Assembly (NCBI GenBank): GCA_016214605.1
Contig: JACROD010000005.1
Span: 6,108 to 70,107 of the forward strand
Source: Candidatus Kaiserbacteria bacterium
Lineage (GTDB): Bacteria > Patescibacteriota > Minisyncoccia > Phycocordibacterales > UBA2100
Direction: 5' to 3'
DNA: 64,000 nucleotides
In this document: positions 16,490 to 36,509 of the stretch, piece by piece
How the letters are laid out: each line of letters begins with the position of its first letter
How positions within the stretch are numbered: position 1 is the stretch's first letter
Made by a program: the position numbers and the translations under genes
The notes under the pieces: model-generated
Told to the model about the DNA's origin: nothing
Databases searched by the model: none
Seen by the model: the letters and a program-made list of their open reading frames with translations, nothing else

Positions 16490-16495
16490 AAGCAA

Positions 16496-17274: not shown

Positions 17275-17308
17275 AGTTACGGCTCTGAGGCTAATCTCAT
17301 ATCCTTAT

Positions 17309-20300
17309 TCATTGGCTCGTGCTCGTCGTTGTTGAATCCACAGGAGCGGTCGATGACGAGGTGGAAGTGTCAATGGTCGACGGCGTTGAGGTCGACGTAT
17401 CCGTGGATGATGTGGTCGTATTGATGGTCGTCGTTCCTGAGGCCGTCTCTTCGGCTGGCGACGTGGTCGTCGTCGGATCATAGACGACGACCGTGCGCGT
17501 CGCCGAACCCTGCACACCGCTTGCGTCCGTGGCAAAGTAACGGATCGTATGCGTACCCGTCACACTCGTATCGATATGGATCTGATCGATTGTCGTCGTC
17601 GCTCCCCCATCCACGATCGCACTGATCCCGAGATTGAGCGCGCTCGTCGGACCCGTGATCGTCGCCCCGAGATCACTATATACCGAGCCGACCTGGATCG
17701 AAGCGGGATTGTTGCCGTTGACGGAGATGATCGGCGCCACCGATCCGGTCGCGGTGGTCGCAGTCGGGGTCGTGGCACCCGAGGAGACACCTCCGGTGCT
17801 ACCACCGGTCGCCCCGGCGGCGCCCGAGCCGCCTCCGCCAGAGGCTACGGCGGCCGAAGCGAGAAGCGCTTGGAGCTGCGCCTCGGTCACGCAGGTCGTG
17901 CCGACACACATCTGCTGCACGGCAGTCACTTTCTGCGCGGTGATGTTGTCGGCATAGATCTCCTTGGCAAAGACCTTGTCAAAGGCAGCGAGACTCCCAT
18001 GTACCGCTCCTCCGAGTTCACGCACGCCTGTGCCCGCGATACCAGACACCGAGGCAAGGGCCAAAGAAAGTGTGTCATGGAGCATCTGACTCACTCCAGC
18101 AAACGGACCATCGATGATTGCTGTCTGCGAACTCGTTGCAAAAGTGCTTGAAGCGATCGCCTGTATCGCCGAGACGTTAATATCCTGCAGGTTAACAAAT
18201 GCGAGGATCGCTGTTGAAGTCGCACCAGTCTGATATGCCTGCAACGCAATTGCCACACTCGGATCCATCGGGTCCGCCTTCATACCGACACCCGGTGTCG
18301 AAGTAGAGAGAGCAATGCGATCTCCGATTGCAATCGGACCGTTGTCGAGATTGACTAAGACCGGTACGCGTCCCACGAGCGCCACAGGATAGTGATTGTC
18401 TGTGGTATCGAAGGTACCATCCGGATTGAAGCCAAGTGTGAGACCTGGCGCGGTCGAGACAATGCCTATTATATGATGTTTGGTATCTGTCACTGCTGCT
18501 TTGATCGCCACATTACCTGCTGTCGCAACAATATTGCCCGGAACGAGAGTATCGTGCGATGCGTACATTTCCGCGACGTCAGAGCCACCCGTCGTAGACG
18601 TCACTGAACTAACACGACCAGTCGTCGAGGCGAAACACCACCCATCGCTGTCCACACAAAGACCGCCATTGACGATTGAGACACTCGCGGCGGTGCTACC
18701 ATTTCCGATGATCATATAGTTACTCGCTTGCGCAGCCGTAGCGGCGACACCAGAAGTCGTGAGGAACGTCGTGGTTGAGGTGAAGAATGTGACCGTAGTC
18801 GTACCAGAGTTACTTTGGATTTTCATAGCGGCATTTGCTGCGGTGGCAGATGACGTGGCAATCGTAAGGAGTCCCATCGGTGTCGTCGTGCCGATACCGA
18901 GATTCGTGCCGGTAAACGTGAGCGCCGTCCCGCTCGTGATCCGCGTGCCGTCGAAGAAATTCACGCCGTTGGTGACTTGGGTGCCCGTGGCCGTACCGCC
19001 ATTAGCGATGCCGAGAATACCGGTCAAATAGTTGACACCGATCGACGTGGTGGCGACGACCGCACCGCTTGCATTGGTGCTGAGGATCGCGTTGGCAGGA
19101 CCGATGAGGTAGTTGGTGCCGATCGTAGTGGTGGCGATTGGATTGCCGCTCGCGTCAAAGGCAAAGATGGATGATGCCGGGCCTTTGAGGAGATTCCAGC
19201 CGATTGTGGTAGAAGCAACCACCGAGCCATTCGCATTCGTACTGAGAATACTGTTGGTGATGGAGGTGATCGCAAAGGTGGTGGTGGTAGCTTGCTGGAG
19301 GCTGGCGGTGCCGTTTACGGTGAGATTATTGCCAAATGTTGCGGCGCCGTTGGAATTAATCGCAAGTGCGGCGACGGTCGAGGTGGCGGTCGCGGTCGAG
19401 GTGGCAATATAGAACGAGTTGCTGATACTGCGGAAGGTCCAAGCATTTGAACTTGCAGTGCCGTCAGTGAGTGCGATCTGTGGACCGGTGGACGATGCGA
19501 CGGTCAATTTCCAAAATGGCGTCGTCGTACCGATGCCGACGAGACCGGTGTTGGTGATGCGCATTTGTTCGGTGAGTGATGTCGTTTGCGCTGTTTTGAA
19601 TATCATGGCACCGCCTACGCCCGCGACATCAGTACCCGTGCCGCCGATACCGGCATTGAGCGTGAGCGCACCTCCCGCTCCGCCCGTCCTCGTGCCCGGG
19701 GTCGCGTTGGCATTGGTCGCGGCCCCGCCGGTGCCTGCAGAAAGCGCGACAGCTCCGCCGGCGCCGGCTGTATTTACTCCGGTCGTGTTGCCACTCGCCG
19801 CGCCGCCGGTGCCTGCTGTCCAGGTGAAGGCACTACCCGCACCGCCGGTGTTGTTGCCGGTACCCGCGACGGATGCGGCGCCGCCCACACCGCCGGTCAT
19901 CGTGAAGGTGCCGCCGGCGCCGCCGGTAGAGAGCACATCGGCTGCGGTGGCGGTGCCGCCGGCCCCCATTGAAAAGGTGTGCCCGCCACCCGCGCCGCCG
20001 GTGGCGGTGCCCGTGTTGGTATTGGTACCGCCGGCGCCGGTCGTCAGCGTGAGGAGACCGCCCGCGAGAGTACTCGACGCACTCGCGGCGCCCGTGGTGA
20101 GTGTGATCGCGCCACCGGCGTTTTGTCCTTTTGACGCGCCTGCAGTAACTGTGACGGCACCACCGGCACGGGCTACACTGTTGTCACCAGCTGCCGCACC
20201 GGCAGTAAGGGTCAGCGCGCCGCCGGCGCCGCCACTTCCTATGGACGTACCCACATCACCAAGGATGGATACTCCACCGCCGGCAGAGCTGGTGGCCGCA

Positions 20301-23300
20301 GCGGCGGTTCCTCCACTGATAGTGAGGAGACCACCACTGCCACCCGTGTCAGTACCTGCACCACCGGCGCCAGCGTTGATAGTGACCGCACCGCCTGCAC
20401 CGCCGGTACGTGTGCCTGGTGTCCCGTTGGCGTTGGTAGCGGCACCGCCGGTGCCGGCTGTCCAGGTAAATGCTCCTCCGATGCCGCCGGTGTTGTTGCC
20501 GGTCGTGTTGCCGTTGGCAGCACCGCCGGTGCCTCCTGTCCAGGTGAAGGGGCTGCCCGCGCCACCGGTGTTGTTGCCGGTACCGGCGACGGAGGCCGCG
20601 CCGCCGACGCCGCCGGTCATGGTGAAGGTGCCGCCGGTGCCGCCGGTGGAGAGGACGTCGGCTGCGGTGGCGGTGCCGCCGGTACCCAGCGTGAATGCAA
20701 ATCCACTGCCGGTGCCGCCCAGGGCTGTACCGGTATTCGTATTGGTGCCGCCCAATCCACCCGTGAGAGAGATTGCACCGCCGGCAAGCGTACTTGATGC
20801 ACTCGAAGCACCGGCAGTGAGTGTGATGGCACCACCTGCATTATTTCCCTTCGATGCTCCGGCAGTGATCGCGATGGCGCCGCCAGCACGAGCCACGCTG
20901 TTATCTCCGCCTGCCAATCCGCCCGTGAGGGTGATCGCGCCGCCGGCGCCGCCCGAGCCGGTCGTGCCGCCGGCCGCACCGGTGATAGTAACGGCGCCGC
21001 CGGCAGAGCTCGTGGCCGCGGCAGCAAGACCGCTGGAGAGCGAGAGGCCGCCGCCGTTGCCGCCTGTGTCAGTACCAACGCCGCCGGCGCCGGCACGTAG
21101 TGTGATCGCACCGCCGACGCCGCCGGTGCGTGTGCCCGGTGTCCCATTGGCGTTGGTAGCAGCACCGCCGGTGCCGGCTACCCAGGTGAAAGCACCGCCG
21201 GTGCCGCCGGTGTTGTTGCCGGTCGTATCCCCATTGGCCGCGCCGCCGATACCGCCTGTCCAGGTGAAGGCACTGCCCGCGCCGCCGGTATTGTTGCCGG
21301 TACCGGCGACGGAGGCCGCGCCGCCGACGCCGCCGGTCATGGTGAAGGTGCCGCCGGTGCCGCCGGTGGAGAGGACGTCGGCTGCGGTGGCGGTGCCGCC
21401 GGTGCCGAGGGTGAGCGTGAGCGCACTGCCGGCGCCGCCGGTGCGCGTGCCTGTGTCGGTAGTCACACCACCCGTGATGCCTGCGATGTTCAAGATCGAA
21501 GTCGCTGCCGTACCGTTGCCCGATGACGCCGATGTCGGCTGTGTACCCGAGACATGGAGCATTGAGGTGGGTGCCGTGATGCCGATACCGACGAGATTGG
21601 TCGGCAAGATGCGCATCGCTTCGCCGAGACTACCTGCATTGAGGGTGAGGAATGCGAGCGCACCCGATGAAGCACCTGCGGTATGCGCGGTGTTGATGCC
21701 GACGATTTGTGCAGAAGAAGTGGCTCCGCCATTGGTCAGATCCTGTGTGCGGAATGCGAGTGTCGAGAAATTGTTGGCGGTCGTATTGCGGTTGCTGATC
21801 GAAAGCGTCGTGCCAGACGTGAAGGTGTTGAGTGTCGTACCCGCATCAGAGCCGGAGATTTCGATCGCGGAGTTGGGGCTTGTGGTGCCGATACCAAATC
21901 TGTTGTTCGTGTCATCCCAGAAGAAGTTGCTGTTATCCTGCGTAAGCGAAGTGCCATTGGAGAATATCACCGAGCCGGCGGTGTATGCAGAGGAGTTGTT
22001 GGTACCGCCATTGGCAATGGCGAGTACACCGGTCAGATAATTGGTGCCGATGGATGTCGTCGCAACAACTTGGCCGCTACTATTCGTAGAGAGTATCGCG
22101 TTGGTGATACTGGGAATATTAAGGATGCCGAGCGAAGCTGTCTGCGCGAAGAGATTGGTCGATGATGCCGTCGTAGAGAAGAGATTCGTGGTGGTGGCAT
22201 TGCCCAAGATCGTGAGGCCGGTGGCAGTAAAATTGGTCGTGCTCGCTCCCCCGTTCATACTGAAGAGTCCTGAGGTGATCGTGCTAGATGCGGTGGAAAG
22301 GAAGCCGCCGGAGAGAGTCGCGAGGCCGGTGTCTCCCGCGATCGAGAAAAGCGAGGTGCCGGTCGAGCTTGCGATGACGAAAAGCGGATTGGTCTGGCCT
22401 GCCGTGCCCGCGAGCGAGAGACTGCCCCATGGCGTGGTGGTGCCGACGCCGACGTTGCCACCCATGAAGAGACCGGCGATCGGTGTGGTGGCGCTCGATG
22501 ATGCGACATACGAGAAGATGCCGCCGGTGGAGTAGATGCCTCCCGCACCGGCGTTGAAAGTATCGGCAAAGATATGACCCTGCGAGGTGAGATCGTTGCG
22601 CAGTTGCAAAGAGCCCGCGTCGAGCGTACCCACAGCCAGCGATTGCAGATCGGCACCGGTGATGTCGTGTACGACAAGGTCATTGCCCGAGATGCTCGAC
22701 AGCCCGACGAATGCGCTATGACCGGAGACAACGAGACCTTGGACGTTGGCATTTTCGTCAACACCGCCGACGGCAATCGGATTGTATGGATCGGATATGT
22801 CGTACACGCGGAAGTCGCAGCCGGTGATCGTTGTTGAGTTGCACGAACCAGCGAGCGAGCTTACACCGAGATACATATATCGTCCCGAGACTTGGACAGT
22901 CTGCGCAGCAGCGGCACTGATGACCGAGGTGGTGGCGATCGCGGTCGGGTTGGAAACATCGTAGATGATGAGGTTGCCCGTGACGCCGCCCGTGTCTTTG
23001 CCTACGTAGGCATAATTGCCCGAGACGGCGATGGCGCGGCCGTTGGTGCCGAGGTCCATACCGCCGACAGTGACGGGGGCAGCGGGATTGGAGATGTCCA
23101 CGATGATAAAGTCGTTGCCGGTAACACTTCCTTGGGCGATATACGCATAATTACCCTGTACGCGCAGACCAATACCGGCAGTACCCAAATCGAGCCCGCC
23201 CACCGTTACCGGATTGGTCGGATCCGAGATGTCGATGATACGGAAGTCGTTGCCGGAAACAGAGTTCAAAGTCACGTACGCATAATGCCCCGAAACGACC

Positions 23301-26300
23301 ACGTTAATACCGGAAATAGCAAAGTTGAGACCGCCTTTGAACAGGGGTGCGGATGGATTGGAGATATCGTAAATGCGGAATTCGCAACCGGTGGCGGTGG
23401 TCGAGTTGCAGGTGCCGGCTACCGTGCTGACCGTTACGTATGCATATTGCCCCGCTACCGCGATACCGTTGCCATGCGCGGTCGCCGTCGGTCCGAAGTC
23501 GGCACCGCCGAGGAAACGCGGCGTGCCCGTAGCTATATCAAAGATGCGGAGTTCGCAATCTGACATATCGCTCGTGGAGCAGCCGGTATTGGCGGTCGTG
23601 GAGGCGGTGACCAGGTAGAGGGTGTTGCCGACGACCGTCATATCCTGCCCGCCAAAGAGTGACTCCCCCACCCCGATCCCGAGATCGACGCCGCCGAGGA
23701 GCGCGGGATTGTACAGCTGCCCTGAATTACCGCTGCCGCCCGTCTGGAAGATATTGCCACCCATCACGGTGAGCCGCTCCTGCGGAGAGGTCGTACCGAC
23801 GCCAAGGTTTGTGCCGTCGAAAGTGAGCGCTGTACCGCTCGTAATGCGTGTCCCATCAAAGAAGTTCACACCATTCGTCACCTGCGTACCGGTCGCTGTT
23901 CCCCCGTTGGCGATCGGGAGGATACCACTGAGATAGTTCACGCCGATCGAGGTAGTGGCGATCACCATGCCGTTTGCATCGGTGGCAAGAAGTTTGCTGG
24001 TGGTGGCTTTGAGGTTAAGTGTGCCCAGTGATGCAAGCTGCGAGAAGAGATTCGTGGAGCTGGCGGTGGTGCTGAAGAGATTGGTCGTGGTGGCATTGCC
24101 CAAGATCACAAGACCGGTGGCAGTGAAGTTGGTGGTGCTCGCTCCCCCGTTGGCTGAGAAGAGACCGCTTGTGATGGTCGAGGATGCGGTACTGATGAAG
24201 CCACCGAGGGTCGAGAGACCGGTGACGCCAAGCGTGCCGCCCGTGGAGATGTTTGAGGCAGCAAAGGTCGTGCCGTTCCAGGTGATGGCGGTGCCGGAGG
24301 TGATGCGCGTACCGTCGAAGAAGTTCACACCGTTGGTGACCTGTGTGCCGGTCGCGGTGCCGCCGTTGGCGATCGGGAGGATGCCGGAGAGATAATTCAC
24401 ACCCACGGAAGTGGTGCCCACGACATTACCGGAGGAATCGGTGGAAAGCAGGAGATTGTTACCTCCCTTGAGGTAGTTGAGACCGATGGTGGAGGTGGCC
24501 GTCGGGTTGCCCGAAGAGTCGAAGGCGAAGATGGATGATGCCGGGCCTTTGAGGAGATTCCAGCCGATGGTGGTGGTGGAGACGATCTTCTTGTTGGCAT
24601 CAAGCGCAAGAAGCGTTGACGCGGTGAGATTGGTGAGCCAGGTCGATCCGGAGAAGGTGGCGAGAGTCGTGCTGGATTGAGCGATGTTGAGCGGTGCCGA
24701 GAAGGTGGACGATGCATTGGCGACGATGTTGCCGTCAAAGGTGGAAAGACCCTGCGAAGTAAAGCCACTCGCAAACGTGGCCAGGTCATTGACGAAAAAT
24801 GAGGAGCTCGGGGTATACGTAAGGCCTCCATCACTGGTGAATTTGGTACCATCGAAGTACATGACGCCATTGGTCGTGCCGCCGGTGGAGTTGTTGGTGC
24901 CTCCATTGGCGATCGGGAGAATGCCAGTGAGGTAGTTGACACCAATCGACGTGGTAGCAATCACCATGCCGTTTGCATCGGTGGCAAGGAGCTTGCTTGT
25001 GGTCGCGCGGAGATTGAGTATGCCGAGGCTTGCGGTCTGCGAGAAGAGATTGGTGGAGGATGCGGTCGTACTGAAGAGATTGGTCGATGTCGCACCATTC
25101 TGGCCGATGAGGAATACCGTACTCGATGAGTTGTTGACTGCCTCAAAGAGATTGGCAGTACCCCAGGTGGTGAGCTTGCTGTATGGAGTGGTAGTGCCGA
25201 TGCCGATGTTGCCACTTGATACAGTTGAGCCGGTACCGGTAATACCGGTGCCGTAGATGATATTGCCAATGTTGAGTTGGCCGCTGGCTGTCGCACTCGG
25301 AAACGAGATATTATTGCCGATGAGGATGTTTTGCGATCCCGTGGTGAGGTTGGCTATTGCGGCCGAGGAGGTGGCGGTACCGATCCAGATGTTGTTGCTC
25401 CCGGTCGTGATGCCGCGACCGGATTGATAGCCGAAGAGCGTGTTGAAATCGGAGTTGGTCTGGGCACCATACCCGGCAAGATAACCGACGTACGTGCCTC
25501 CTTGGTTATTGAAGTTGGCAGCCGCATTGCCAGCACTCGATCCTATCGCGACAGAACTGGTCGCGGAGATATTGAGTCTCGATGCATTCGCGCCGATCGC
25601 GACGTTGTCAGAACCGGTAGTATTCAGGCGCAAAGATTCATTTCCCATCGCCGTATTTGAACTGCCGGTCGTGAGTGCATTCATCGCGGCACGTCCCATA
25701 GCGTTATTAAAATCGCCTGTCGTGATTGCACTCAGTGCGAACGTCCCGAGTCCGTAGTTTTGCAAACCAGTCGTACTCGTGTTACCTGCAGATTGGCCGA
25801 TGAAAAAAGAATTGAGTGTCGAGGATGCTTGCAAGATCAGATTACCGTCGATCTTGTACCCGCCCGTCGTGCCGGAGGTGTTGTAAAATCCGGAAGCGTA
25901 TACATCGCCTGCAACGGATAACAAGGAGCCGGGTGTGCTGGTCCCGATCCCCACATTGCCACTTCCCTGTTGCAAGACGAATTGGCTGGTACCGATGGTG
26001 AAGCCTTGGCCGGCGGCGATGGTGGATGTGCCACTCGTCTGCGTGCTGTTGAAGAGTGGCGCGCCAAAGGTCGTGCCGTTGAAAGTAAGCGCAGTACCGC
26101 TCGTGATCCGCGTACCGTCGAAGAAGTTCACACCATTCGTCACCTGCGTACCGGTCGCTGTTCCCCCATTGGCGATCGGCAAGATACCACTCAAGTAGTT
26201 GACGCCGATACTTGAGGTCGCGACGACGCTGCCATTTGCATTGGTCGAGAGGATCGCCGACGCGAGATTGGTGATGGCAAAGTTGGTGGTGGTCGCACCA

Positions 26301-29300
26301 TTCTGTCCGATCGAGAAGACGGTCGATGAGCTGTTGGTGACGGCTTCGAATAAGGAGCCGGTGCCCCAGGTGGTGAGCTTGCTGTATGGCGTGCTGGTGC
26401 CGATGGCGATATTGCCGGTCGATATCGTCGCCCCCGTACCAGAGAGGCCGGTGCCATAGATCAAGTTGCCGATGACGAGCTGATTGGACGCGGTCGCGCT
26501 CGGGACGGCCACGTCATTGCCGATCGCGATATTGTTGCTTCCGGTGGTGACCTGATCGCGTGAAGCGGTGATGGTGGACTGGCCGAGGAGGACGTTGCGG
26601 GCGCCGGTAGTAATGGCGTAGCCGGATTGATAGCCGAGGAGGGTGTTGTAGTCGGAGCCGGTGGTGAATCCTCGCCCTGCAGAAAAGCCAATGACCGTAC
26701 CCCCTTGATTACTATAGTTGGCGGTGCCGATCGCGGCTGAAGACCCGATAGCGACGGTACTGGTGGCTGACTGATTGAAATTGGAAGCCGAAGAACCGAC
26801 AGCGACGTTGCTGCTACCTGTAGTATTGGAAAGAAGAGCATTATAGCCACTGGCAGTATTGGAACTGCCGGTAGTGTTGAAGATGAGGGATCGCGCACCC
26901 AGAGCGGTGTTGGAACCGCCAGTGGTGTTGGACTGGAGCGTACTGTTGCCGCTCGCGGTGTTATTGGTACCTGTCGTATTAGAAAAGAGAGCGAGATAAC
27001 CGGTCGCAGTATTGATCTGACCTGTGGTATTGGAACTGAGCGCGTTGTATCCGACCGCGGTATTTGCTATCGCTGTGCCCGAAGTCGGCGTCGTGCCGAG
27101 CGCACCTTGACCGATGGCGACAGAAAGCCAGCTTGTCGAGGATGCACTCATCCAAGCGGCTGCAGCAGATGCACCGACAGCAAGAGATGTATTCGTCGTA
27201 CTCGCATACAGTACTGTGTTTCCGGCCTGCTTGTATCCTCCCGTTGTACCATCTGTGTTGATGAAGCCATTGACGTCGAGCGAGTAGCTCGGGGTGGTGT
27301 CATTGATACCGAGATTGGTCCCATCAAACGTAAGCGCTGTGCCGGATGTGATCCGCGTACCATCGAAGAAGTTCACGCCGTTGGTGACTTGGGTGCCGGT
27401 CGCGGTGCCGCCATTGGCGATTGGGAGAATGCCGGAGAGGTAATTGACCCCGATCGAGGTGGTCGCGATCACCATACCGTTTGCATCAGTGGCAAGGAGC
27501 TTGCTTGTGGTCGCCTTGAGCGCGAGCGTGTTCCAGATATTGGCCGAGGCAAGCTGTGATGTGGAGGATGCATAGAAGCCCATCTGATACCAGGTCGGTG
27601 TGGTAGTGGCGTTGGTCGATGTACCAAAGGTGGTGGCTATGGTCCAAGGCCAAGAGGTTCCGCTTGATGGCCAGGTGGTGCGGCACGTATCGCCGGTGAA
27701 GCAGATGGTGGTCGCTGCAAAGTTGGTCGAGGTAGCACCATTCTGACCGATGAGGAATACTGTACTCGATGAGTTGTTGACCGCCTCGAAGAGATTGGCA
27801 GTGCCCCAAGTGGTGAGCTTGCTGTATGGCGTGCTGGTGCCGATGGCGATATTGCCGGTCGATATCGTCGCCCCCGTACCAGAGAGGCCGGTGCCATAGA
27901 TCAAGTTGCCGATGACGAGCTGGTTGGAGAGTGTGGAGGATGCAATGGCCACGTCATTGCCGATGGCGATGTTATTGGAGCCTGTGGTGACTTGGTTTTG
28001 TGAGGCGGCGATGGTGGACTGGCCGAGGAGGACGTTGCGGGCACCGGTGGTGATGCCGTAGCCGGATTGGTAACCGAGGAGGGTGTTGTAATCGCTTCCG
28101 GTGGCGAAGTTGAAGCCGGCTTGCATGCCGACGACGGTGCCGCCCTGATTGGAGTAGTTGCCGTTGCCCTGGCCGGCATACGCACCGAAGGCAGTGGTGC
28201 TGGTGGCAGACCCGTTGTAGAACAGAGCATAGTAGCCATTGGCGGAGTTATTGGAGCCGGTGGTGTTATTGAAGAGCGCGTTGCTGCCGTTGGCGGTGTT
28301 GTACGAGCCGATATTTTTGTTCAGAGCATTCGTGCCGATGGCGGTATTCACGACACCGGTGGTATTAGAGGTGAGCGCATAGTAACCGATTGCAGTGTTG
28401 CCATAACCGATTGTATTGGCGGATAGACTTTGGATACCGATTGAGGTGTTTAATTGGCCGTTAGAACCGAGATGATCCGTGGGGATCGTTGCGAGCGCAC
28501 CGGAGCCGATGGCAATGTCATTCCAACTTGTCGACGACGCACTCATCCATGCGGCGGCTGCTGATGCACCAACAGCGAGAGATGTGTTGGTCGTGCTCGC
28601 ATACAGCACCGTATTCCCCGCCTGTTTGTATCCGCCCGTCGTGCCGTCGGTGTTGACGAAACCATTCACATCGAGAGTGTACGTAGGTGCCGTGAGCGAA
28701 CCGACGCCGAGCTTGCCCGCAAAGATCGAGTTGGCGGTCGAGGAAGTCGCGAGATACGCCGCGGCGGTCGGTGTCGATGTGGAAACGATGCGCGTACCGT
28801 CGAAAGCAGTAAGCATATGACTGCCGATCGAGCTTGCATTAGTGCCGCCATTCGCAATGCCGAGAATGCCCGAGAGGTAATTGACCCCGATACTCGTGGT
28901 CGCCGTCGGATTGCCCGAAGAGTCGAACGCAAAAATGGATGATGCCGGGCCCTTGAGGAGGTTCCAGCCGATTGAGGTGGTGGCGACGAGCTTTTGATTG
29001 GCGTCGAGCGCGAGAAGACTGCTTGCGGCGATACCAGTAAACCAGGTGTTGTTGGTGAATGTGGCGAGGCTCGTGGTGCTCTGGGAGAGATTGAGAAGCG
29101 CCGAGAAGGTCGAGGAAGCTTGCGCGATGAGACCGCCGGTAAAGGTGGAGGCGGTCGATGAAGTGGCGTTGAAGTACTGAGCTGATACGGCACCTTGGAC
29201 GTTGAGCTTGTCGGTCGGAGCACTGTTGCCGAGGCCGAGCTTGCCGTCTGCAGTGAGGACGGTCGAGAGCACACCATTGGCATCATAGATATCGATCAGG

Positions 29301-32300
29301 TTGGCTGATTGGCTTGCGGCAGCGGAGAGGACGAGGGTCGTGGTGGCGGCGGAGCCTGAGAGGATGGAAAATTTGGCATACGGAGTCGTGCTCGCACCGA
29401 CCACCGCCAGATCCGTGGTGGTAGCGAGGGTGACACGACCGATACTGTTGGTGGTCCAGCCGCCGCCGGTGCTCGCGCCACCGACCGAGATCGTACCGCA
29501 AGAGATATTGCCCGAACCATCGGTCTGCAGCGCCTGACCTCCCGTACAAGTAGTGACCGATCCGAGCGCGAGGGTACTGGTGAAGCGGCCGGTGCCAGAG
29601 ACGTCGAGTGTGTATGAGGGAGCATTGGTGCCGATGCCCACACGGCCGCTTCCCTGTTGTACTACTAATTGTGTACCGCCGATAGTGAAGCCTTGGCCGC
29701 TGGCGATGGTGGATGTACCAGAGGTCTGCGTGCTGTTGAAGAGTGGCGCGCCAAAGGTCGTACCGTTGAAGGTAAGTGCGGTGCCGGAGGTGATCCGCGT
29801 ACCGTCAAAGAAATTCACACCGTTGGTGACCTGTGTGCCGGTCGCGGTGCCGCCATTGGCGATCGGCAAGATACCACTCAAATAGTTGACTCCGATGGTG
29901 GTAGTGGCGATGACCATACCATTCACATCCGTGGCGAGGAGCTTGCTGGTGGTGGCATTGAGATTGAGTGTGCCCAGTGATGCAAGCTGCGAAAAGAGAT
30001 TTGTGGAGCTTGCAGTGGTGGCAAAGGTGTTGGTGGTTGTGGCGTTGCCCCAGATGAATACATTGCCCGATACGGCGAAGGTGGCGGAGGGAGCGGTGGT
30101 GGCAATGCCGAAGCTCCCTGCTGACGTAAGTCGTGCACCTTCGGTGAGGGTGCCGGAGCGAAGTGTGGCGAAGGCGAGATCGCCGTTCCCGGTTTGTGGT
30201 ACGCCGCCGGTGCCTCCCTGGAAGATGCTGAAGATGGATGCGGTCGTGGTGCCGGTGTTGTGGACGATGTCGTCGGTCTTGAATGCGAGCGAGACCTTGG
30301 TGGAAGAGGTGGCCGAGCCGAAGTTGGAGAGGGAGAAGGGTGTGGTGCTGGCTGAGGTGTTGTCGGAGACTTCGAGCTTGGTCTGTGGAGTGGTGGTGCC
30401 GATGCCGACGTTGCCGGAGTTGTTGGAATAGATGGCGTTGGAAGCTCCCAGTGTCCACGGCGTGTTGATCGTGAGTGCCGAGCCGCCGACCAGGAAGCCT
30501 GCAGTACCGGTGAAGGTCACGCCGGTGCCGGCGGAGACACTGGAAGTGGCGACGGAGGTGAGGCCGTTGGTGCCGTTGCCATACAGAAGCTGACTGCTCG
30601 TGAAGGTGGATTGACCGGTGCCGCCGTTGGCGATACCGAGGATGCCGGTGAGGTAGTTGGTGCCGATTGATGTGGTCGCGACGACCGCGCCGCTTGCATT
30701 GGTGCTGAGGATGGCGTTGGCAGGGCCGATGAGGTAATTGGTACCGATCGTGGTGGTCGCCGTCGGATTACCCGAAGAGTCGAACGCGAAAATGGATGAC
30801 GCCGGACCCTTGAGGAGGTTCCAGCCGATGGTGGTAGATGCAACGACCGAGCCGTTGGCGTTCGTGCTGAGGATACTGTTGGTGAGCGAAGTAATCGCAA
30901 AGGCGGTGGTAGTAGCGCGGGTCAAGGTGGCGTTGCCGGAGAAGACGTTGGTGCCGCTCCAGGTATTGGCGTCAGACAGCAATGTCGTCGAAGCGCCCGT
31001 GAAGGTCTGCTGGGTCTTCCAGTAGTCAGTCGAGGTGGTGGAGAATGCGAGACCTTGGTTTTGTGAGAGGAAGTACGAGGCGGAGGTGGTGGCCCAGCGG
31101 GTCTGCGTGGTCTCCCAGTATGCTGTGGAGGTCGTGGAGAAGAAGTTGTTGGCGGTTTTCCAGTAGTCGCTCGATGTCGTCGAGAAGAAATATCCCTTAT
31201 TGAGGGTATTGAGATAGGTATTCACCAGCGTGTCACTGTAGTACTTGTTGGTGCTACCCTGCGCGAGACCGTCGGTCGTGGTAGCGTACCACGACAAGAG
31301 TGAAAGTTTGGCATCGAGCGCACTCTGCAGGTCGGTTTGGTTGCTCAAAGTGCCTGTAATAGAGCCCCAGATTGCGCTGTTGATGCCGAGGGAGGTGGTG
31401 GAGACGTAGTCGAAGGTGCCGCCGCTGTTGCCCATGAGGAGCTTGCCGTATGTGGGGGCGCTGGATGTGCCGGTACCGCCGTTTGCAATCGAAAGTACAT
31501 TGGTAACATCACTCGCCAGGTTTACAAACCCCGTTGATATCACGCCGGCGGTTGCTTTTAGCAAACCATTCAGAGAGCCGATGGAGAGGCTATTCACCGA
31601 GAGCCCGCCGATGTTTGCCGCTGTGGCATAAAGATTCGTACTTGAGGCAGTCGTTGCAAAGAAATTCGTTGCGGTTGCACTCGTGGTTGTAAGGTTCGTT
31701 ATCGTACCGGTCGCCGCATTAAAAAGCGACGCAAAGAGCGATGTCGTAGTTGCCGATGTGATCGTCGCAGTCCCCAAAATGGCGTCCGTTGAGAAAAGAT
31801 GCGTCGAAGAGGAAATCGTTGAGAAAAACGACGTCGTTGTCGCCGACTGACCGGTCGCGCTTACAAAAGTGATTCCCCCGATATTGCTAACCGAGAACAC
31901 CGTCGCACCTGTCGAAGACGCGAGCGAAAACAGTGTAGAGGTGGTATCAGTCGACGACGCAACGATAGCAAGCCGCGCCGTCGGCGTGGTCGTACCGATA
32001 CCAAGGTTACCCGAGGACGCATTGTATGAAAAATTACTCACGCCATCAAACACTCCTCCGTTGTTGAATTGGATTTGTCCGCTTGATCCGCCAGGCGTAC
32101 CGCCTCCACCGCCAGTCGTTATACAGTTACCATTCACCGAGAAACATCCTCCTGAGAGAGCGATACCATTGGCAAATGTCGAGGTTGCCGTCGTCGACGA
32201 TATGGACAAAACCCCTGCCCCGAGACCGCCTGAAAACGTCGATGTGCCGCTATATGTGCTTTTCAAAAGTCCTGTGAGTGTACCACCGGAGACCGCAAGA

Positions 32301-33577
32301 TACTGACCGCTTAAGTCAGGCAGGTCGGCGGATGTGAGGCCTGTGACGCCATTGACATGTACGTTCGTTAGGAGTGTTCCATTCAGCGAATCGATATGCT
32401 GCGTCAATGCGATCTGATTTGCGACACCACCGCTTGCAGGCGGCGCCACGGGGGTAAATTGCGAGACCTGTAGCGACTGAGCAAATTGCTGGAGGCGCCT
32501 ATCAAGGTCATTCGTCGTTATACCGCTTGTCGCCGGCAGCGAATATGCAGTGTTGTTGTAGACATTATGGGTCTCATTGTTCGTCGTGTTATAGGTGTTG
32601 TTATAGGTGTTGTTTACAACGCTCGACGGCGCCATAACACCACCACCGAATGATGCGAATCCTCCCGATGCAACAGTGGCAGGAGGCGACGAAAGAGCAG
32701 ATTTGGCTGTTGGCGTAATGTGCACATACACAGATCCTTGCTGTCCGACATCCCAGCCAAATACTCGCAAAATATTAGCAAAGAAGCCACCGATACTACT
32801 CACCACATGAGAAGGAATACTTTCTTCGATCGCCGCAACATTCTGAACGCGACTCGGCGATGTATTGTTGGTGAGGGATGCATGTCGCGTTATCGCGTTT
32901 TGCGATGATCCGATAAAAGCCATGAAAACGAAGACAATAGCCACCGTCGCAAAGACTCCTTTCAGAGACACAAGAGAGCGCATCGAGGACATAGAATACG
33001 CAGCCGGGTCCGACACTGATCTGGGGGCACGACTCGCCAGAGTTTTTGTTTCCTCCCCAGCGACCAAGGGAGATTCTTTCACGAGCTTTTCTTGTACAGG
33101 CGACAGAATCCTTTCGGTAATACCAAGGGCTTGGGGATTAAACTGGAGAATCTCATATACAGAAACCGGACGCGGTGAGACACCCTTTGCAGCAAAGAAG
33201 TCCGAGACGGATTCTTTATCGACAAGCCAGAGACCGTCTTGTACGACACCCCGGATTTTCTTCTGGCGACAAAGACGTGAAATGTGATCATTCGTCACTC
33301 CAAAAAGAGCTGCCGCATCCTTGGACGAGATGTATTTTGCTACGCGATGTATGACCTCCCGCACAGAAACCGGACGCGGTGAGACACCCTTTGCAGCAAA
33401 GAAGTCCGAGACGGATTCTTTATCGACAAGCCAAAGACCGTCTTGTACGACACCCCGGATTTTCTTCTGGCGACAAAGACGTGAAATGTGATCATTCGTC
33501 ACTCCAAAAAGAGCTGCCGCATCCTTGGACGAGATGTATTTTATTTGGTAGTCGTTTCTTTGGATTGTGTCGCCCAT
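17309..33577 (-). CDS. Giant 5422-aa membrane-anchored surface protein. N- to C-terminal architecture: two identical wHTH-like (excisionase/MerR-like) repeats, a TM helix, S/T-rich segments, multiple families of tail-fibre-like repeats (ANGGT motif), a triplicated Gly-rich module, an LVIVD beta-propeller, a DUF5011-like Ig domain, and a Ser/Thr-rich C-terminal tail.
   Basis: A single uninterrupted 16,269-nt ORF with a TGA stop. N-terminus KYISSKDAAALFGVTNDHISRLCRQKKIRGVVQDGLWLVDKESVSDFF appears twice. Hydrophobic segment VFATVAIVFVFMAFIG. Repeats NYLSGILPIANGGTATGTQVTNGVNFFDGTRITSGTALTF occur at least 6 times. The LVIVD-like repeats include FRIIDISDPTNPV, FIIVDISNPAAPV and LIIYDVSNP. The C-terminal segment APIISVNGNNPASIQVGSVYSDLGATITG...THTIRYFATDASGVQGSATRTVVV is DUF5011-like. 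Confidence 0.85.
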   Translation of the reverse strand: MGDTIQRNDYQIKYISSKDAAALFGVTNDHISRLCRQKKIRGVVQDGLWLVDKESVSDFFAAKGVSPRPVSVREVIHRVAKYISSKDAAALFGVTNDHISRLCRQKKIRGVVQDGLWLVDKESVSDFFAAKGVSPRPVSVYEILQFNPQALGITERILSPVQEKLVKESPLVAGEETKTLASRAPRSVSDPAAYSMSSMRSLVSLKGVFATVAIVFVFMAFIGSSQNAITRHASLTNNTSPSRVQNVAAIEESIPSHVVSSIGGFFANILRVFGWDVGQQGSVYVHITPTAKSALSSPPATVASGGFASFGGGVMAPSSVVNNTYNNTYNTTNNETHNVYNNTAYSLPATSGITTNDLDRRLQQFAQSLQVSQFTPVAPPASGGVANQIALTQHIDSLNGTLLTNVHVNGVTGLTSADLPDLSGQYLAVSGGTLTGLLKSTYSGTSTFSGGLGAGVLSISSTTATSTFANGIALSGGCFSVNGNCITTGGGGGTPGGSSGQIQFNNGGVFDGVSNFSYNASSGNLGIGTTTPTARLAIVASSTDTTSTLFSLASSTGATVFSVSNIGGITFVSATGQSATTTSFFSTISSSTHLFSTDAILGTATITSATTTSLFASLFNAATGTITNLTTTSATATNFFATTASSTNLYATAANIGGLSVNSLSIGSLNGLLKATAGVISTGFVNLASDVTNVLSIANGGTGTSSAPTYGKLLMGNSGGTFDYVSTTSLGINSAIWGSITGTLSNQTDLQSALDAKLSLLSWYATTTDGLAQGSTNKYYSDTLVNTYLNTLNKGYFFSTTSSDYWKTANNFFSTTSTAYWETTQTRWATTSASYFLSQNQGLAFSTTSTDYWKTQQTFTGASTTLLSDANTWSGTNVFSGNATLTRATTTAFAITSLTNSILSTNANGSVVASTTIGWNLLKGPASSIFAFDSSGNPTATTTIGTNYLIGPANAILSTNASGAVVATTSIGTNYLTGILGIANGGTGQSTFTSSQLLYGNGTNGLTSVATSSVSAGTGVTFTGTAGFLVGGSALTINTPWTLGASNAIYSNNSGNVGIGTTTPQTKLEVSDNTSASTTPFSLSNFGSATSSTKVSLAFKTDDIVHNTGTTTASIFSIFQGGTGGVPQTGNGDLAFATLRSGTLTEGARLTSAGSFGIATTAPSATFAVSGNVFIWGNATTTNTFATTASSTNLFSQLASLGTLNLNATTSKLLATDVNGMVIATTTIGVNYLSGILPIANGGTATGTQVTNGVNFFDGTRITSGTALTFNGTTFGAPLFNSTQTSGTSTIASGQGFTIGGTQLVVQQGSGRVGIGTNAPSYTLDVSGTGRFTSTLALGSVTTCTGGQALQTDGSGNISCGTISVGGASTGGGWTTNSIGRVTLATTTDLAVVGASTTPYAKFSILSGSAATTTLVLSAAASQSANLIDIYDANGVLSTVLTADGKLGLGNSAPTDKLNVQGAVSAQYFNATSSTASTFTGGLIAQASSTFSALLNLSQSTTSLATFTNNTWFTGIAASSLLALDANQKLVATTSIGWNLLKGPASSIFAFDSSGNPTATTSIGVNYLSGILGIANGGTNASSIGSHMLTAFDGTRIVSTSTPTAAAYLATSSTANSIFAGKLGVGSLTAPTYTLDVNGFVNTDGTTGGYKQAGNTVLYASTTNTSLAVGASAAAAWMSASSTSWNDIAIGSGALATIPTDHLGSNGQLNTSIGIQSLSANTIGYGNTAIGYYALTSNTTGVVNTAIGTNALNKNIGSYNTANGSNALFNNTTGSNNSANGYYALFYNGSATSTTAFGAYAGQGNGNYSNQGGTVVGMQAGFNFATGSDYNTLLGYQSGYGITTGARNVLLGQSTIAASQNQVTTGSNNIAIGNDVAIASSTLSNQLVIGNLIYGTGLSGTGATISTGNIAIGTSTPYSKLTTWGTANLFEAVNNSSSTVFLIGQNGATSTNFAATTICFTGDTCRTTWPSSGTSWPWTIATTFGTSTNATTTPTWYQMGFYASSTSQLASANIWNTLALKATTSKLLATDANGMVIATTSIGVNYLSGILPIANGGTATGTQVTNGVNFFDGTRITSGTALTFDGTNLGINDTTPSYSLDVNGFINTDGTTGGYKQAGNTVLYASTTNTSLAVGASAAAAWMSASSTSWLSVAIGQGALGTTPTSGTAIANTAVGYNALSSNTTGQINTATGYLALFSNTTGTNNTASGNSTLQSNTTGGSNTALGARSLIFNTTGSSNTASGYNALLSNTTGSSNVAVGSSASNFNQSATSTVAIGSSAAIGTANYSNQGGTVIGFSAGRGFTTGSDYNTLLGYQSGYAITTGARNVLLGQSTITASRDQVTTGSNNIAIGNDVAVPSATASNQLVIGNLIYGTGLSGTGATISTGNIAIGTSTPYSKLTTWGTGSLFEAVTNSSSTVFSIGQNGATTTNFAITNLASAILSTNANGSVVATSSIGVNYLSGILPIANGGTATGTQVTNGVNFFDGTRITSGTALTFNGTTFGAPLFNSTQTSGTSTIAAGQGFTIGTSQFVLQQGSGNVGIGTSTPGSLLSVAGDVYASGFYNTSGTTGGYKIDGNLILQASSTLNSFFIGQSAGNTSTTGLQNYGLGTFALSAITTGDFNNAMGRAAMNALTTGSSNTAMGNESLRLNTTGSDNVAIGANASRLNISATSSVAIGSSAGNAAANFNNQGGTYVGYLAGYGAQTNSDFNTLFGYQSGRGITTGSNNIWIGTATSSAAIANLTTGSQNILIGNNISFPSATASGQLNIGNIIYGTGITGTGSTVSSGNIGIGTTTPYSKLTTWGTANLFEAVNNSSSTVFLIGQNGATSTNLFSTTASSTNLFSQTASLGILNLRATTSKLLATDANGMVIATTSIGVNYLTGILPIANGGTNNSTGGTTNGVMYFDGTKFTSDGGLTYTPSSSFFVNDLATFASGFTSQGLSTFDGNIVANASSTFSAPLNIAQSSTTLATFSGSTWLTNLTASTLLALDANKKIVSTTTIGWNLLKGPASSIFAFDSSGNPTATSTIGLNYLKGGNNLLLSTDSSGNVVGTTSVGVNYLSGILPIANGGTATGTQVTNGVNFFDGTRITSGTAITWNGTTFAASNISTGGTLGVTGLSTLGGFISTASSTITSGLFSANGGASTTNFTATGLVILGNATTTNLFSTTASSTNLFSQLASLGTLNLKATTSKLLATDANGMVIATTSIGVNYLSGILPIANGGTATGTQVTNGVNFFDGTRITSGTALTFDGTNLGVGTTSPQERLTVMGGNIFQTGGSGNSGQLYNPALLGGVDLGIGVGESLFGGQDMTVVGNTLYLVTASTTANTGCSTSDMSDCELRIFDIATGTPRFLGGADFGPTATAHGNGIAVAGQYAYVTVSTVAGTCNSTTATGCEFRIYDISNPSAPLFKGGLNFAISGINVVVSGHYAYVTLNSVSGNDFRIIDISDPTNPVTVGGLDLGTAGIGLRVQGNYAYIAQGSVTGNDFIIVDISNPAAPVTVGGMDLGTNGRAIAVSGNYAYVGKDTGGVTGNLIIYDVSNPTAIATTSVISAAAAQTVQVSGRYMYLGVSSLAGSCNSTTITGCDFRVYDISDPYNPIAVGGVDENANVQGLVVSGHSAFVGLSSISGNDLVVHDITGADLQSLAVGTLDAGSLQLRNDLTSQGHIFADTFNAGAGGIYSTGGIFSYVASSSATTPIAGLFMGGNVGVGTTTPWGSLSLAGTAGQTNPLFVIASSTGTSLFSIAGDTGLATLSGGFLSTASSTITSGLFSMNGGASTTNFTATGLTILGNATTTNLFSTTASSTNLFAQTASLGILNIPSITNAILSTNSSGQVVATTSIGTNYLTGVLAIANGGTNNSSAYTAGSVIFSNGTSLTQDNSNFFWDDTNNRFGIGTTSPNSAIEISGSDAGTTLNTFTSGTTLSISNRNTTANNFSTLAFRTQDLTNGGATSSAQIVGINTAHTAGASSGALAFLTLNAGSLGEAMRILPTNLVGIGITAPTSMLHVSGTQPTSASSGNGTAATSILNIAGITGGVTTDTGTRTGGAGSALTLTLGTGGTATAADVLSTGGTGGTFTMTGGVGGAASVAGTGNNTGGAGSAFTWTGGIGGAANGDTTGNNTGGTGGAFTWVAGTGGAATNANGTPGTRTGGVGGAITLRAGAGGVGTDTGGNGGGLSLSSGLAAAATSSAGGAVTITGAAGGTTGSGGAGGAITLTGGLAGGDNSVARAGGAIAITAGASKGNNAGGAITLTAGASSASSTLAGGAISLTGGLGGTNTNTGTALGGTGSGFAFTLGTGGTATAADVLSTGGTGGTFTMTGGVGGAASVAGTGNNTGGAGSPFTWTGGTGGAANGNTTGNNTGGIGGAFTWTAGTGGAATNANGTPGTRTGGAGGAVTINAGAGGAGTDTGGSGGLLTISGGTAAAATSSAGGGVSILGDVGTSIGSGGAGGALTLTAGAAAGDNSVARAGGAVTVTAGASKGQNAGGAITLTTGAASASSTLAGGLLTLTTGAGGTNTNTGTATGGAGGGHTFSMGAGGTATAADVLSTGGAGGTFTMTGGVGGAASVAGTGNNTGGAGSAFTWTAGTGGAASGNTTGVNTAGAGGAVALSAGTGGAATNANATPGTRTGGAGGALTLNAGIGGTGTDVAGVGGAMIFKTAQTTSLTEQMRITNTGLVGIGTTTPFWKLTVASSTGPQIALTDGTASSNAWTFRSISNSFYIATSTATATSTVAALAINSNGAATFGNNLTVNGTASLQQATTTTFAITSITNSILSTNANGSVVASTTIGWNLLKGPASSIFAFDASGNPIATTTIGTNYLIGPANAILSTNASGAVVATTSIGVNYLTGILGIANGGTATGTQVTNGVNFFDGTRITSGTALTFTGTNLGIGTTTPMGLLTIATSSATAANAAMKIQSNSGTTTVTFFTSTTTFLTTSGVAATAAQASNYMIIGNGSTAASVSIVNGGLCVDSDGWCFASTTGRVSSVTSTTGGSDVAEMYASHDTLVPGNIVATAGNVAIKAAVTDTKHHIIGIVSTAPGLTLGFNPDGTFDTTDNHYPVALVGRVPVLVNLDNGPIAIGDRIALSTSTPGVGMKADPMDPSVAIALQAYQTGATSTAILAFVNLQDINVSAIQAIASSTFATSSQTAIIDGPFAGVSQMLHDTLSLALASVSGIAGTGVRELGGAVHGSLAAFDKVFAKEIYADNITAQKVTAVQQMCVGTTCVTEAQLQALLASAAVASGGGGSGAAGATGGSTGGVSSGATTPTATTATGSVAPIISVNGNNPASIQVGSVYSDLGATITGPTSALNLGISAIVDGGATTTIDQIHIDTSVTGTHTIRYFATDASGVQGSATRTVVVYDPTTTTSPAEETASGTTTINTTTSSTDTSTSTPSTIDTSTSSSTAPVDSTTTSTSQ
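19560..21700 (-). repeat. Triplicated ~720-bp module encoding a Gly/Ala/Thr-rich (PGRS-like) ~240-aa repeat inside the giant gene.
   Basis: The protein repeat TGNNTGGAGSAFTWTGGxGGAANGxTTGNNTGGxGGAFTWxAGTGGAATNANGTPGTRTGG occurs 3 times. DNA landmarks recur at ~19690, ~20420 and ~21135. Confidence 0.75.
23790..31500 (-). repeat. Array of diverged to near-identical intragenic repeats (units ~130 bp to ~1.4 kb) encoding ANGGT-type tail-fibre-like repeats.
   Basis: The ~130-bp unit ...gtgatccgcgtaccgtcgaagaagttcacaccgttggtgacctg.gtgccggtcgc.gtgccgcc.ttggcgatcgg.a.gat.cc... recurs at ~18900, 23810, 24290, 24830, 26080, 27320 and 29760. The 26361..26480 segment is 100% identical to 27805..27924, with ~90% identity over the adjoining ~200 bp. 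19020..19290 is ~85% identical to 30640..30900. Confidence 0.8.
33159..33542 (-). repeat. Tandem direct duplication (two copies of ~180 bp with a 204-bp period and one mismatch) at the 5' end of the giant gene. It encodes the two wHTH-like repeats.
   Basis: Copy 1 is 33159..33338 and copy 2 is 33363..33542. The only difference is g/a (ccagagacc vs ccaaagacc). Confidence 0.9.
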
Positions 33578-34119
33578 ATTTTTTTATTTCAAGCCACATG
33601 TCGCCGAGACGACATAACGATTCAATGTTCAAATTGTACGACGTGTTCGCTTGAATGAAGTCGCATTTTTTATTTCGTGTGGATAAGTCCCGTAAAAGAT
33701 TTTTCCGTGCCATTCACTCTTCTGATACCAAAAGTCACACCGGATATTTTTGTTTTCGTTCGTCAAACACAAGGAGATTTTTCACATACAAAGTCGCGGG
33801 GCAAGATCGTATATTGAGGAGCAAGAATACAAGGCTCTAATGGCTTAATTCCTCACTACCTATTAATCGACAGCACCTTTTAGCAAAGAGAAAGATTTAT
33901 CTTACCCAAACACAAAGAAAGATCGTATCCGCCACAAAAAATCAATCTGACTAGAAACATTTTCACATTACCCTGATCTTTGGCGATCTAAATCCAAAAA
34001 TTATAAAACCCCTGGTATGGATAAAAAATCAAAAAACTATCGATTATGTGGTATTTATATACTCGTTATGCCGAGATTTACTGTATTTACGTATATCGGA
34101 TACCCGATATTTATTAAAA

Positions 34120-36339: not shown

Positions 36340-36509
36340 GCACTGCAGTATATACGAGAAAGGTCCGCACGTCATACAGGCGAGATAACCCTGTGGATAG
36401 CACATCAAGATATCGGGACCTAGGCGAGATCCGAGGCACTCACATGTCTCGTTATGTCAGCCGCTACGATTCTAAGACCATTAAAAAATCGTCCTTCCGA
36501 GATATTATT

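Follow-up and report, generated by a model that had tools for sequence, protein, structure and literature searches.

One of the questions raised by the ultra-small bacteria within the candidate phyla radiation (CPR) is how they find and hold their hosts; this is still largely unknown, and almost none of them has been cultured. In this paper we looked at a window of 64,000 nucleotides, by which we mean the whole stretch of DNA that was analyzed (assembly GCA_016214605.1 of Candidatus Kaiserbacteria, contig JACROD010000005.1, positions 6,108 to 70,107), in which one open reading frame (ORF) encodes a protein of 5,422 amino acids. This protein, here called the giant, is flanked by secA and gatB upstream and by gapdh, rpiB and rpe downstream. 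What is such a protein, and how could it be built and used? Based on our analysis, the giant is probably a variant form of the cellular, phage-tail-fibre-like adhesive fibres. The account that we consider probable is that of a membrane-anchored and probably trimeric fibre, folded by a chaperone domain at its C-terminal end and used in contact with the host, with an N-terminal cytoplasmic head as its conserved base, for which a tie to DNA is favoured.

Pfam and NCBIfam scans, which were run on eight overlapping pieces of 800 residues, place two helix-turn-helix (HTH) domains of the excisionase-type HTH_17 family at the beginning of the protein (PF12728 in two stretches with E 1.7e-13 and 51 bits, where the cut-off is 27; TIGR01764 "excise" with 33.8 against 28.8). 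They are followed by one transmembrane (TM) helix, the sole Kyte-Doolittle (KD) peak above 1.9 in all 5,422 residues, so that the two HTH domains and the TM helix named in an earlier reading of this DNA (the original prediction) are both found. By inspection there is no N-terminal signal peptide, since the protein opens with the HTH domains and reaches its hydrophobic helix only at residues 201-226. The giant is thus predicted to be a single-pass membrane protein, N-terminus in and C-terminus out, with an ectodomain of ~5,200 residues. The 16 cysteines of this ectodomain all fall into eight close pairs with a spacing of 5-16 residues, as expected for extracellular disulfide loops. The HTH-TM-stalk part is collinear with the N-terminal ~500 residues of giants found at the same locus in other genomes (26-28% identity, E 1e-27). 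The second HTH arose by a 204-bp in-frame tandem duplication, the copies of which are 99% identical (99.4% over 180 nt in blastn); the closest relative of the head, P0007 (56% identity), has a single HTH.

The domain that is most informative on how the giant is built was overlooked by the original prediction. A search with residues 4960-5422 found 44 relatives, which carry one of two alternative domains at a single position: either the S74 chaperone with an SDxRxK motif or the domain of the giant, with the pattern "SDVAEMY...VALxGRVPVxV...GDxI..S..PGVGMKA". Both alternatives are followed by the same helical segment (residues 5146-5283 in the giant) with its Cys loop and linker, by an immunoglobulin (Ig)-like DUF5011 domain and by a Ser/Thr-rich tail. 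The giant's alternative is predicted to be an intramolecular chaperone of the type found in phage phi29 gp12 (Peptidase_G2). A profile made of 22 family sequences matches full-length gp12 (E 1.4e-5), the "chaperon domain D4" of the Dpo31 tailspike (2.2e-5) and the solved gp12 fragment 3gqh_A (6e-4), and 12 of the 22 sequences have a PF11962 match (Peptidase_G2, IMC autoproteolytic cleavage domain; best E 4.5e-10). D5000, A5002 and E5003 (profile positions D32, A34 and E35) are invariant in all 22; in the alignment the counterpart of D5000 is residue 1 of 3gqh_A, the fragment that gp12 releases (gp12 D692), and that of E5003 is E695. The AlphaFold2 (AF2) model of the domain has a predicted local distance difference test (pLDDT) score of 88-97 and its confident part begins exactly at residue 5000. 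In Foldseek the model retrieves phage capsid decoration and cement proteins, and its fold agrees with that of the gp12 C-terminal fragment. Within the set 33 proteins have a G2-type domain, and those of them that are full-length giants have it close to the C-terminus. Counting this one, 7 of 18 HTH-headed giants have the G2-type domain and 3 of 18 the S74 motif. Trimerization and self-cleavage of the giant would be expected from this homology. The DUF5011 domain of the original prediction scores above its cut-off (PF16403, E 1.3e-7, 32 bits against 27) and is modelled with an Ig-like fold (pLDDT 89-97, with PKD, Big_3 and Rib matches), and the predicted Ser/Thr tail is present as well, with 61% Ser+Thr in the final 60 residues.

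Between the head and the chaperone lies a long mosaic body. The protein as a whole is rich in Thr (16.5%), Gly (14.8%), Ala (11.8%), Ser (11.7%) and Asn (7.5%) with only ~6% charged residues, and shuffled modules are recognized by 11 [IL]ANGGT, 13 IGxNYLxG and 11 GIGTTxP motifs. The original prediction had compared the ANGGT repeats, which do exist, with phage tail fibres. This likeness holds for three other modules and for the chaperone domain and fails for ANGGT itself, for which a search of 50,697 phage records returned no match; the idea of ANGGT as a tail-fibre marker was dropped. The three modules, ~320 residues each, are solenoids with the repeat "NTAxGxxAL..NTTG". In PHROG their matches are to tailspike and virion-structural families (E 1e-23 to 1e-25), and tblastn matched 45 phage records, mostly of tail fibres, tailspikes or appendages, at 32-38% identity. 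Solenoid homologues number 2,194 at E <= 1e-10; an S74 domain ("chaperone of endosialidase", PF13884) is present in many of them, and some are named "tail fiber domain-containing protein" or, at JGI, "trimeric autotransporter adhesin". The AF2 model of residues 1725-1884 (pLDDT 86-97) is a solenoid in which a short strand recurs every ~17 residues, and its nearest solved folds, all of them weak matches, are YadA-like adhesin heads and left-handed beta-helices. A beta-propeller of LVIVD repeats, as had been predicted, is clear in the second half of the body (PF08309, E 1.7e-33, 114 bits against 20.2, in four stretches and one more in an overlapping piece). The predicted triplicated, "PGRS-like" Gly-rich module is indeed a unit of 240 residues in three copies (77-78% identical in DNA, 66-84% in protein; 30% Gly, 17-18% Ala, 18% Thr), and the PGRS part of the name is a matter of composition: membership of the mycobacterial PE_PGRS proteins was rejected, as there is no PE domain and no family match for residues 3961-4760. 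The Gly-rich unit has no match in Pfam, PHROG or PDB sequences; NCBIfam and PHROGs give no families on residues 661-1460, 2641-3440 and 3961-4760 (ANGGT and Gly-rich pieces); and phmmer searches of PDB sequences, made with pieces of the body, with the Gly-rich unit and with the N-terminus, returned antibody and designed-repeat noise only.

The giant is a member of a very large family that is already sequenced and yet undescribed. A HMMER scan of cluster representatives with residues 1141-2340 retrieved 39,206 of them at E <= 1e-3 and 3,392 at E <= 1e-30, and many of the best matches are giants. When a local HTH profile was run on the best 150, the HTH was found at the extreme N-terminus of 17, which are 2,004-7,634 residues long, and in 17 of these 17 the top hydrophobic segment lies within residues 85-230 (that of P0007 is weak, KD 1.52). 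We also fetched 80 gatB loci and searched the DNA downstream of gatB. An ORF with a family-type HTH follows in 43 of the 80, and 26 of the 80 have a small HTH-TM gene, orthologous to the giant's upstream neighbour p351, and then a second HTH-headed ORF. This second ORF has at least 1,000 residues in 14 of the 26 loci and reaches more than 2,900, most of these lengths being lower bounds, with ORFs that run to the end of the fetched DNA. Across 114 HTH domains A10 (97%), D19 (95%), Y20 (97%), L24 (94%), R26 (91%) and W39 (97%) are conserved, and the putative recognition helix DY..L.R is near invariant across paralogues and lineages. The original prediction had called the cytoplasmic DNA-binding head unusual. 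It is rather a family hallmark, because it is shared by 17 of the 150 best relatives and by at least 14 syntenic loci, and because the two genes upstream of the giant, p303 and p351, both carry HTH_17 and a TM helix. In public records the relatives are named "hypothetical", "DUF5011 domain-containing" or "immunoglobulin-like domain-containing"; we found no literature description of the giant's architecture, which, with incomplete coverage of the literature, is absence of evidence only.

Two further observations were made on the N-terminal ends of the family. Some relatives that share the fibre body (P0017, P0035 and P0039) start with a pilin-like hydrophobic N-terminus, "GFAIAPILY(M/I/L)LGL(I/V)GVG", and therefore the same body is apparently mounted on different N-terminal anchors. 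In the Kaiserbacteria-like clade (loci L005, L006, L011, L014 and L018) the TM region carries the motif HK(I/L)VALxLALxLTFGTYAx(V/I)DPxYA, which is present in p303 and P0007, is absent from the giant and could be a processing or interaction site.

How would such a protein be assembled? In the mechanism that we propose, the chain would be inserted N-in/C-out and exported from N to C through Sec, and because export runs in this direction the chaperone domain would emerge last. It would then join three chains and nucleate the trimer, as in phage tailspikes, and the fibre would fold from its tip back toward the membrane, after which the chaperone would cut itself off at S4999|D5000. The mature trimer, held by its TM helices, would face the surface of a host cell with its solenoid, propeller and Gly-rich modules. 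That giants of this kind mediate host attachment was already part of the original prediction; published work on other ultra-small bacteria assigns this function to similar proteins (PMC8080830; bioRxiv 10.1101/2023.11.21.568195) and agrees by analogy for the one described here.

Several results weigh against parts of this account. The giant's own PF11962 score is below the family threshold (17.7 bits against 25, E 0.0025). The Ig domain and the Ser/Thr tail lie after the predicted site, unlike in phi29, where the cleaved domain is terminal, so that cleavage at S4999|D5000 would discard both; either there is no cleavage, or the released fragment may stay bound or have a role of its own. For the solenoid model the best Foldseek match is weak (E 0.016, TM-score ~0.3), and the ANGGT modules, which account for most of the body and have no phage match, are modelled as monomers with a pLDDT of only ~45. 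The host-binding role is drawn from analogy. The closest available relative (L001; SecA 82% and GapDH 90% identical) has the gene order secA-gatB-p351-gapdh-rpiB-rpe and no counterpart of the ~19 kb of the window (16339-35352) from the end of p351 to the start of gapdh. As this block contains, besides p303 and a gene that weakly matches an IS200-like Y1 transposase, the giant itself, the giant is dispensable or strain-specific. Finally, RodZ is an example of a membrane-tethered HTH that can bind a protein (MreB) instead of DNA.

This last point leads to the question of what the head does. As the DY..L.R helix is near invariant across paralogues and lineages, the head should bind one common ligand, and DNA is favoured because every family match is to a DNA-binding, excisionase-type family. 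That the head would bind DNA and so tie the base of the fibre to the nucleoid is nevertheless held with low confidence and is the least certain part of our account. One possible option, though an unlikely one, is that the HTH_17 head binds a protein, as the HTH of RodZ binds MreB, and docks the base of the fibre to a cytoplasmic partner (the cytoskeleton, the secretion machinery or the neighbouring HTH-TM proteins). That one surface is strongly conserved between paralogues and between lineages fits this option, as do the RodZ precedent and the position of p351, a conserved gene for a putative partner, which is beside gatB and secA also in L001, a genome without a giant; yet the sequence matches are to DNA-binding excisionase families. 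The only solved relative that was found, weakly (family profile against solved structures, E 0.024), is AM32, which we take to be a TraN-like double-stranded DNA binder with two internal HTH-type halves; it is also a lead for the tandem HTHs of p351 and the giant.

Another hypothesis, somewhat less probable still, is that the giant acts as a one-component regulator tethered to the membrane, as ToxR and CadC do, with an ectodomain that senses host contact or tension and an HTH_17 head that alters transcription. The topology of a cytoplasmic DNA-binding-type domain, one TM helix and a large ectodomain is conserved family-wide and is that of ToxR/CadC and RodZ, in which a single TM helix likewise joins a cytoplasmic HTH at the N-terminus to a C-terminal part outside the cytoplasm. 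p351, the giant and the large ORF of locus L010 all have HTHs in tandem, and in so small a cell no part of the nucleoid would be beyond the reach of the membrane. The domain itself differs, being excisionase/MerR-like instead of OmpR-type or XRE-type, with no Pfam match in the giant to Trans_reg_C (the OmpR-type winged helix of ToxR/CadC), and the ectodomain is fibre-like and 20-50 times larger. A search for a shared operator-like motif upstream of the three HTH genes found none, only coding-derived repeats and chance-level short matches. Since five HTHs in three adjacent genes share the near-invariant helix and no operator motif is seen, a common, generic ligand fits better than gene-specific operators.

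A different doubt concerns the outer part of the fibre, which might be a structural component of the envelope (such as an S-layer-like coat, a biofilm matrix or a matrix between cells) and not a host-recognition adhesin. A family of 39,206 cluster representatives is extremely abundant, the Thr/Gly/Ala/Ser/Asn-rich and nearly charge-free composition would suit a coat, and the neighbourhood includes a glycan cluster and two other large surface proteins. We still regard a structural role as improbable: the closest relative lacks the gene and turnover of the locus is fast, as is typical of host-range determinants, and the kit of modules is that of phage receptor-binding proteins and of the prey-recognition fibres of Bdellovibrio.

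Could the giant itself be an artefact of assembly, with repeats collapsed or expanded or with several genes chimerically joined? The gene is very repetitive, its longest exact DNA repeats measure 113, 113 and 108 nt, and the copy numbers of the 99%-identical 204-bp HTH duplication and of the 720-bp Gly-rich unit can be verified by reads only. The short-read misassembly risk is confined to these two copy numbers, and because both repeats are multiples of 3 bp an error would alter the length and not the frame. The remaining internal repeats are 62-82% identical in DNA, and none besides the HTH duplication reaches 90%. In independent assemblies relatives of 2,004-7,634 residues have the same N-terminal head and some also have the C-terminal modules in the same order; the head together with the order chaperone-Ig-Ser/Thr tail recurs in P0023 (5,494 residues), P0031 (3,439) and P0058 (5,287). 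By our own estimate from composition, the chance of 5,422 stop-free codons is ~1e-84 at ~58% GC. The longest ORF in another frame across the region (19419-22040, plus strand) has 873 residues and faces the Gly-rich repeats on the other strand; it is no gene but a shadow ORF, because these repeats are runs of GGN and GCN codons. An artefact is therefore very unlikely, and the single ORF of the original prediction stands, with exact coordinates, as one intact chromosomal gene of a Kaiserbacteria-like (Paceibacteria, CPR) bacterium; GatB of the window is 76% identical to that of a Candidatus Kaiserbacteria metagenome-assembled genome, and the remaining top matches are to Paceibacteria/CPR genomes. 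Promoter and terminator scans around the gene gave counts near the shuffled expectation. Weakest of all is the idea of a prophage or phage tail-fibre gene, which has the phage-family matches of the solenoid modules and chaperone domain in its favour and is hardly credible given the TM anchor and cytoplasmic head, the housekeeping flanks, the absence of any phage gene among the window ORFs scanned and the conserved chromosomal position of this gene class in many genomes.

The neighbourhood of the giant also bears on its local history. DNA similarity between the window and L001 ends inside p351 and restarts at gapdh. In most related genomes p351 directly follows gatB, also in those that have no giant behind it, and more distant relatives have the order secA-gatB-p351-giant, with giants that open with a p303-like head (p303 against the first 80-250 residues of syntenic giants, E 1e-31 to 1e-17). 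From these comparisons p303 may be a head-only copy left from an ancestral resident giant, and the present giant may be a replacement or a paralogue with its own head. The giant as a frameshifted continuation of p303 was rejected, as it has a complete HTH-TM-stalk of its own, collinear with relatives, and 540 bp of non-coding DNA lie between the two. The weak IS200-like Y1 transposase match (E 4e-6) is in a 233-residue gene in the 16443-17197 region, followed by a perfect hairpin with a 20-bp stem (16443-16489); both are at the 3' border of the ~19-kb block that is absent from L001.

Elsewhere in the window there are two other large surface proteins: one of 1,414 residues (6012-10256) with PG_binding_1, Fn3_assoc, CHB_HEX_C_1 and FlgD_ig domains and one of 1,241 residues (10351-14076) with TIG, Big_7, Big_13 and a right-handed beta-helix. 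As both are absent from L001 too, this pair marks a second variable surface-protein site. A glycan-synthesis cluster (47108-62442) encodes a 759-residue protein with Wzy_C (O-antigen-ligase-like) and TPR domains, an ABC exporter, WavE, two nucleotidyltransferases, an EamA transporter, a CMP-sugar cytidylyltransferase, UDP-GlcNAc 2-epimerase, NeuB+SAF (nonulosonic-acid synthase) and a methyltransferase. Protein O-oligosaccharyltransferases are found among the Wzy_C proteins, and the cluster is circumstantial support for glycosylation of Ser/Thr tails. A gene for a 23S rRNA-intervening-sequence protein (4698-5063, PF05635, E 4e-37) lies between two halves of a transketolase (5074-5934 and 3671-4666). 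The coordinates of the giant, its parts and its two upstream paralogues are collected below.

Table 1. Positions in the window of the giant, of its predicted parts from the N- to the C-terminus, and of the two paralogous genes upstream.
Feature	Residues	Window positions	Strand	Basis or remark
Giant ORF	5,422 plus stop codon	17309..33577	minus	ATG start, no internal stop
204-bp in-frame tandem duplication, 1.9 copies		33159..33542		TRF, repeat search, blastn
HTH_17 (excisionase-type), copy 1	11-65	33383..33547	minus	Pfam PF12728, TIGR01764, local profile; predicted cytoplasmic
HTH_17, copy 2	80-133	33179..33340	minus	Pfam, local profile
Single TM helix (signal anchor)	201-226	32900..32977	minus	Hydropathy
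Juxtamembrane stalk, N/T-rich linker, "GITTNDLDRRLQ" element	227-420	32318..32899	minus	Collinearity with relatives
Mosaic fibre body 1: shuffled ANGGT / IGxNYLxG / GIGTTxP modules and three solenoid modules	421-3289	23711..32317	minus	Self-comparison, motif counts
"NTAxGxxAL" solenoid, copy 1	~1640-1960	27698..28660	minus	PHROG, phage tblastn, AF2
"NTAxGxxAL" solenoid, copy 2	~2108-2440	26258..27256	minus	50-86% amino acid identity to copy 1; PHROG
"NTAxGxxAL" solenoid, copy 3	~2560-2841	25055..25900	minus	50-73% amino acid identity to copies 1 and 2
LVIVD-repeat beta-propeller region, three close Cys pairs	~3290-3700	22478..23710	minus	PF08309, internal repeats
Fibre body 2, ANGGT-type modules	3701-4019	21521..22477	minus	Self-comparison, motifs
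Gly/Ala/Thr-rich unit of 240 residues, three copies	~4020-4690	19508..21520	minus	720-bp period, 78-nt sub-repeat
Fibre body 3, ANGGT-type modules	4691-4969	18671..19507	minus	Cys pair 4974/4981 directly after
Intramolecular chaperone / autocleavage domain, phi29 gp12 (Peptidase_G2) type	4970-5145	18143..18670	minus
Predicted autocleavage site, Ser4999|Asp5000	4999-5000	18578..18583	minus	Invariant D-x-A-E motif; cleavage inferred from homology
Helical segment, Cys5224/Cys5229 loop, Gly-rich linker	5146-5283	17729..18142	minus	Alignment of relatives, AF2 secondary structure
Ig-like domain PF16403 (DUF5011; Bact_surface_Ig-like)	5284-5365	17483..17728	minus
Ser/Thr-rich C-terminal tail	5366-5422	17312..17482	minus	pLDDT <45
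p303, HTH_17 + TM, upstream paralogue	303	34120..35031	minus
p351, 2 x HTH_17 + TM, upstream paralogue	351	35353..36408	minus

Which of the known systems does the giant resemble? The closest described analogue is the mosaic adhesive trimer (MAT) fibre family of Bdellovibrio bacteriovorus, whose members bind prey glycans (PMC10769870). Like the fibre predicted for the giant, MAT fibres are cellular and use phage tail-fibre-like beta-helical modules with swappable tips, and their proposed role, the recognition of another bacterium's surface, is the one that we propose here. The MAT family is divided into members that end with S74 and members that end with other domains, and the same split is seen between the giant with its G2-type domain and its S74 relatives. 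MAT proteins have ~1,000 residues, a signal peptide and a conserved beta-rich N-terminal domain of ~130 residues and are displayed on a diderm surface, whereas the giant is five times longer, has no signal peptide and has a TM anchor of its own, a cytoplasmic HTH head and a gp12-type chaperone. The likeness is to the published description of the MAT fibres, and membership of the MAT family is not claimed. The phi29 gp12 autochaperone (PF11962, 3GQH) shares with the giant the profile match, the aligned Asp and Glu and the location at the C-terminal end of a fibre or spike; the differences are the giant's Pfam score below the cut-off and the helical segment, Ig domain and Ser/Thr tail after the domain, which in gp12 ends the protein.

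Like the modelled modules of the giant, trimeric autotransporter adhesins have a repetitive solenoid with one strand per turn. For the giant's solenoid the YadA-like heads of CbpF, BoaA and EibD give Foldseek E values of 0.016-3, which are not significant (9gh5_A, E 0.016; 3s6l, E 0.27; TM-score <=0.3). Membership of this class was rejected, as the Pfam scan finds no YadA-type beta-barrel anchor and the C-terminus is Ig-like and Ser/Thr-rich; the giant differs further in its helical N-terminal anchor and in the lack of an outer membrane. The eukaryotic MyRF, a membrane-bound transcription factor cited in PMC10769870, has in one polypeptide the combination predicted for the giant: a domain that binds DNA, a TM helix and a trimerizing, self-cleaving chaperone of phage origin. 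The MyRF chaperone (S74-like ICA) is on the cytoplasmic side together with the DNA-binding domain, which its cleavage frees. In the giant cleavage cannot free the HTH, because the chaperone is extracellular and 4,800 residues away. Finally, the giant proteins of Vampirococcus (PMC8080830) and of Omnitrophota (bioRxiv 10.1101/2023.11.21.568195) are, like this one, very large, mostly extracellular and membrane-associated with a proposed role in attachment; their domain sets are different (WD40, TPR and PKD; many TM helices; SecA-like, dockerin and peptidase C39 domains), and the text of neither work mentions helix-turn-helix or tail fiber.

For the biology of these bacteria, the analysis gives an anonymous giant ORF a concrete and testable assembly route (Sec export, a gp12/S74-type chaperone, trimerization and self-cleavage) with a site, S4999|D5000, that can be mutated. 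The HTH_17 + TM head at a secA-gatB-p351-giant locus that is fixed in Kaiserbacteria-like genomes is a searchable signature for candidate host-range genes, and the fast turnover of the locus, the absence of the gene from L001 and the putative head-only copy left behind are as expected for a determinant of host specificity. A question that is raised by this architecture is whether a surface fibre talks to DNA. It is conceivable, if rather doubtful, that across many Paceibacteria the head couples the host-contact fibre to DNA, either as a contact sensor or as a nucleoid tether, with p351 and p303 as partners in a membrane-DNA complex, and the interest of the family would rise sharply if such a link between host contact and DNA is true. 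As a contact sensor the giant would switch genes when the fibre engages a host; as a tether it would hold the nucleoid at the site of attachment, for example for polarity or for the exchange of DNA or nutrients.

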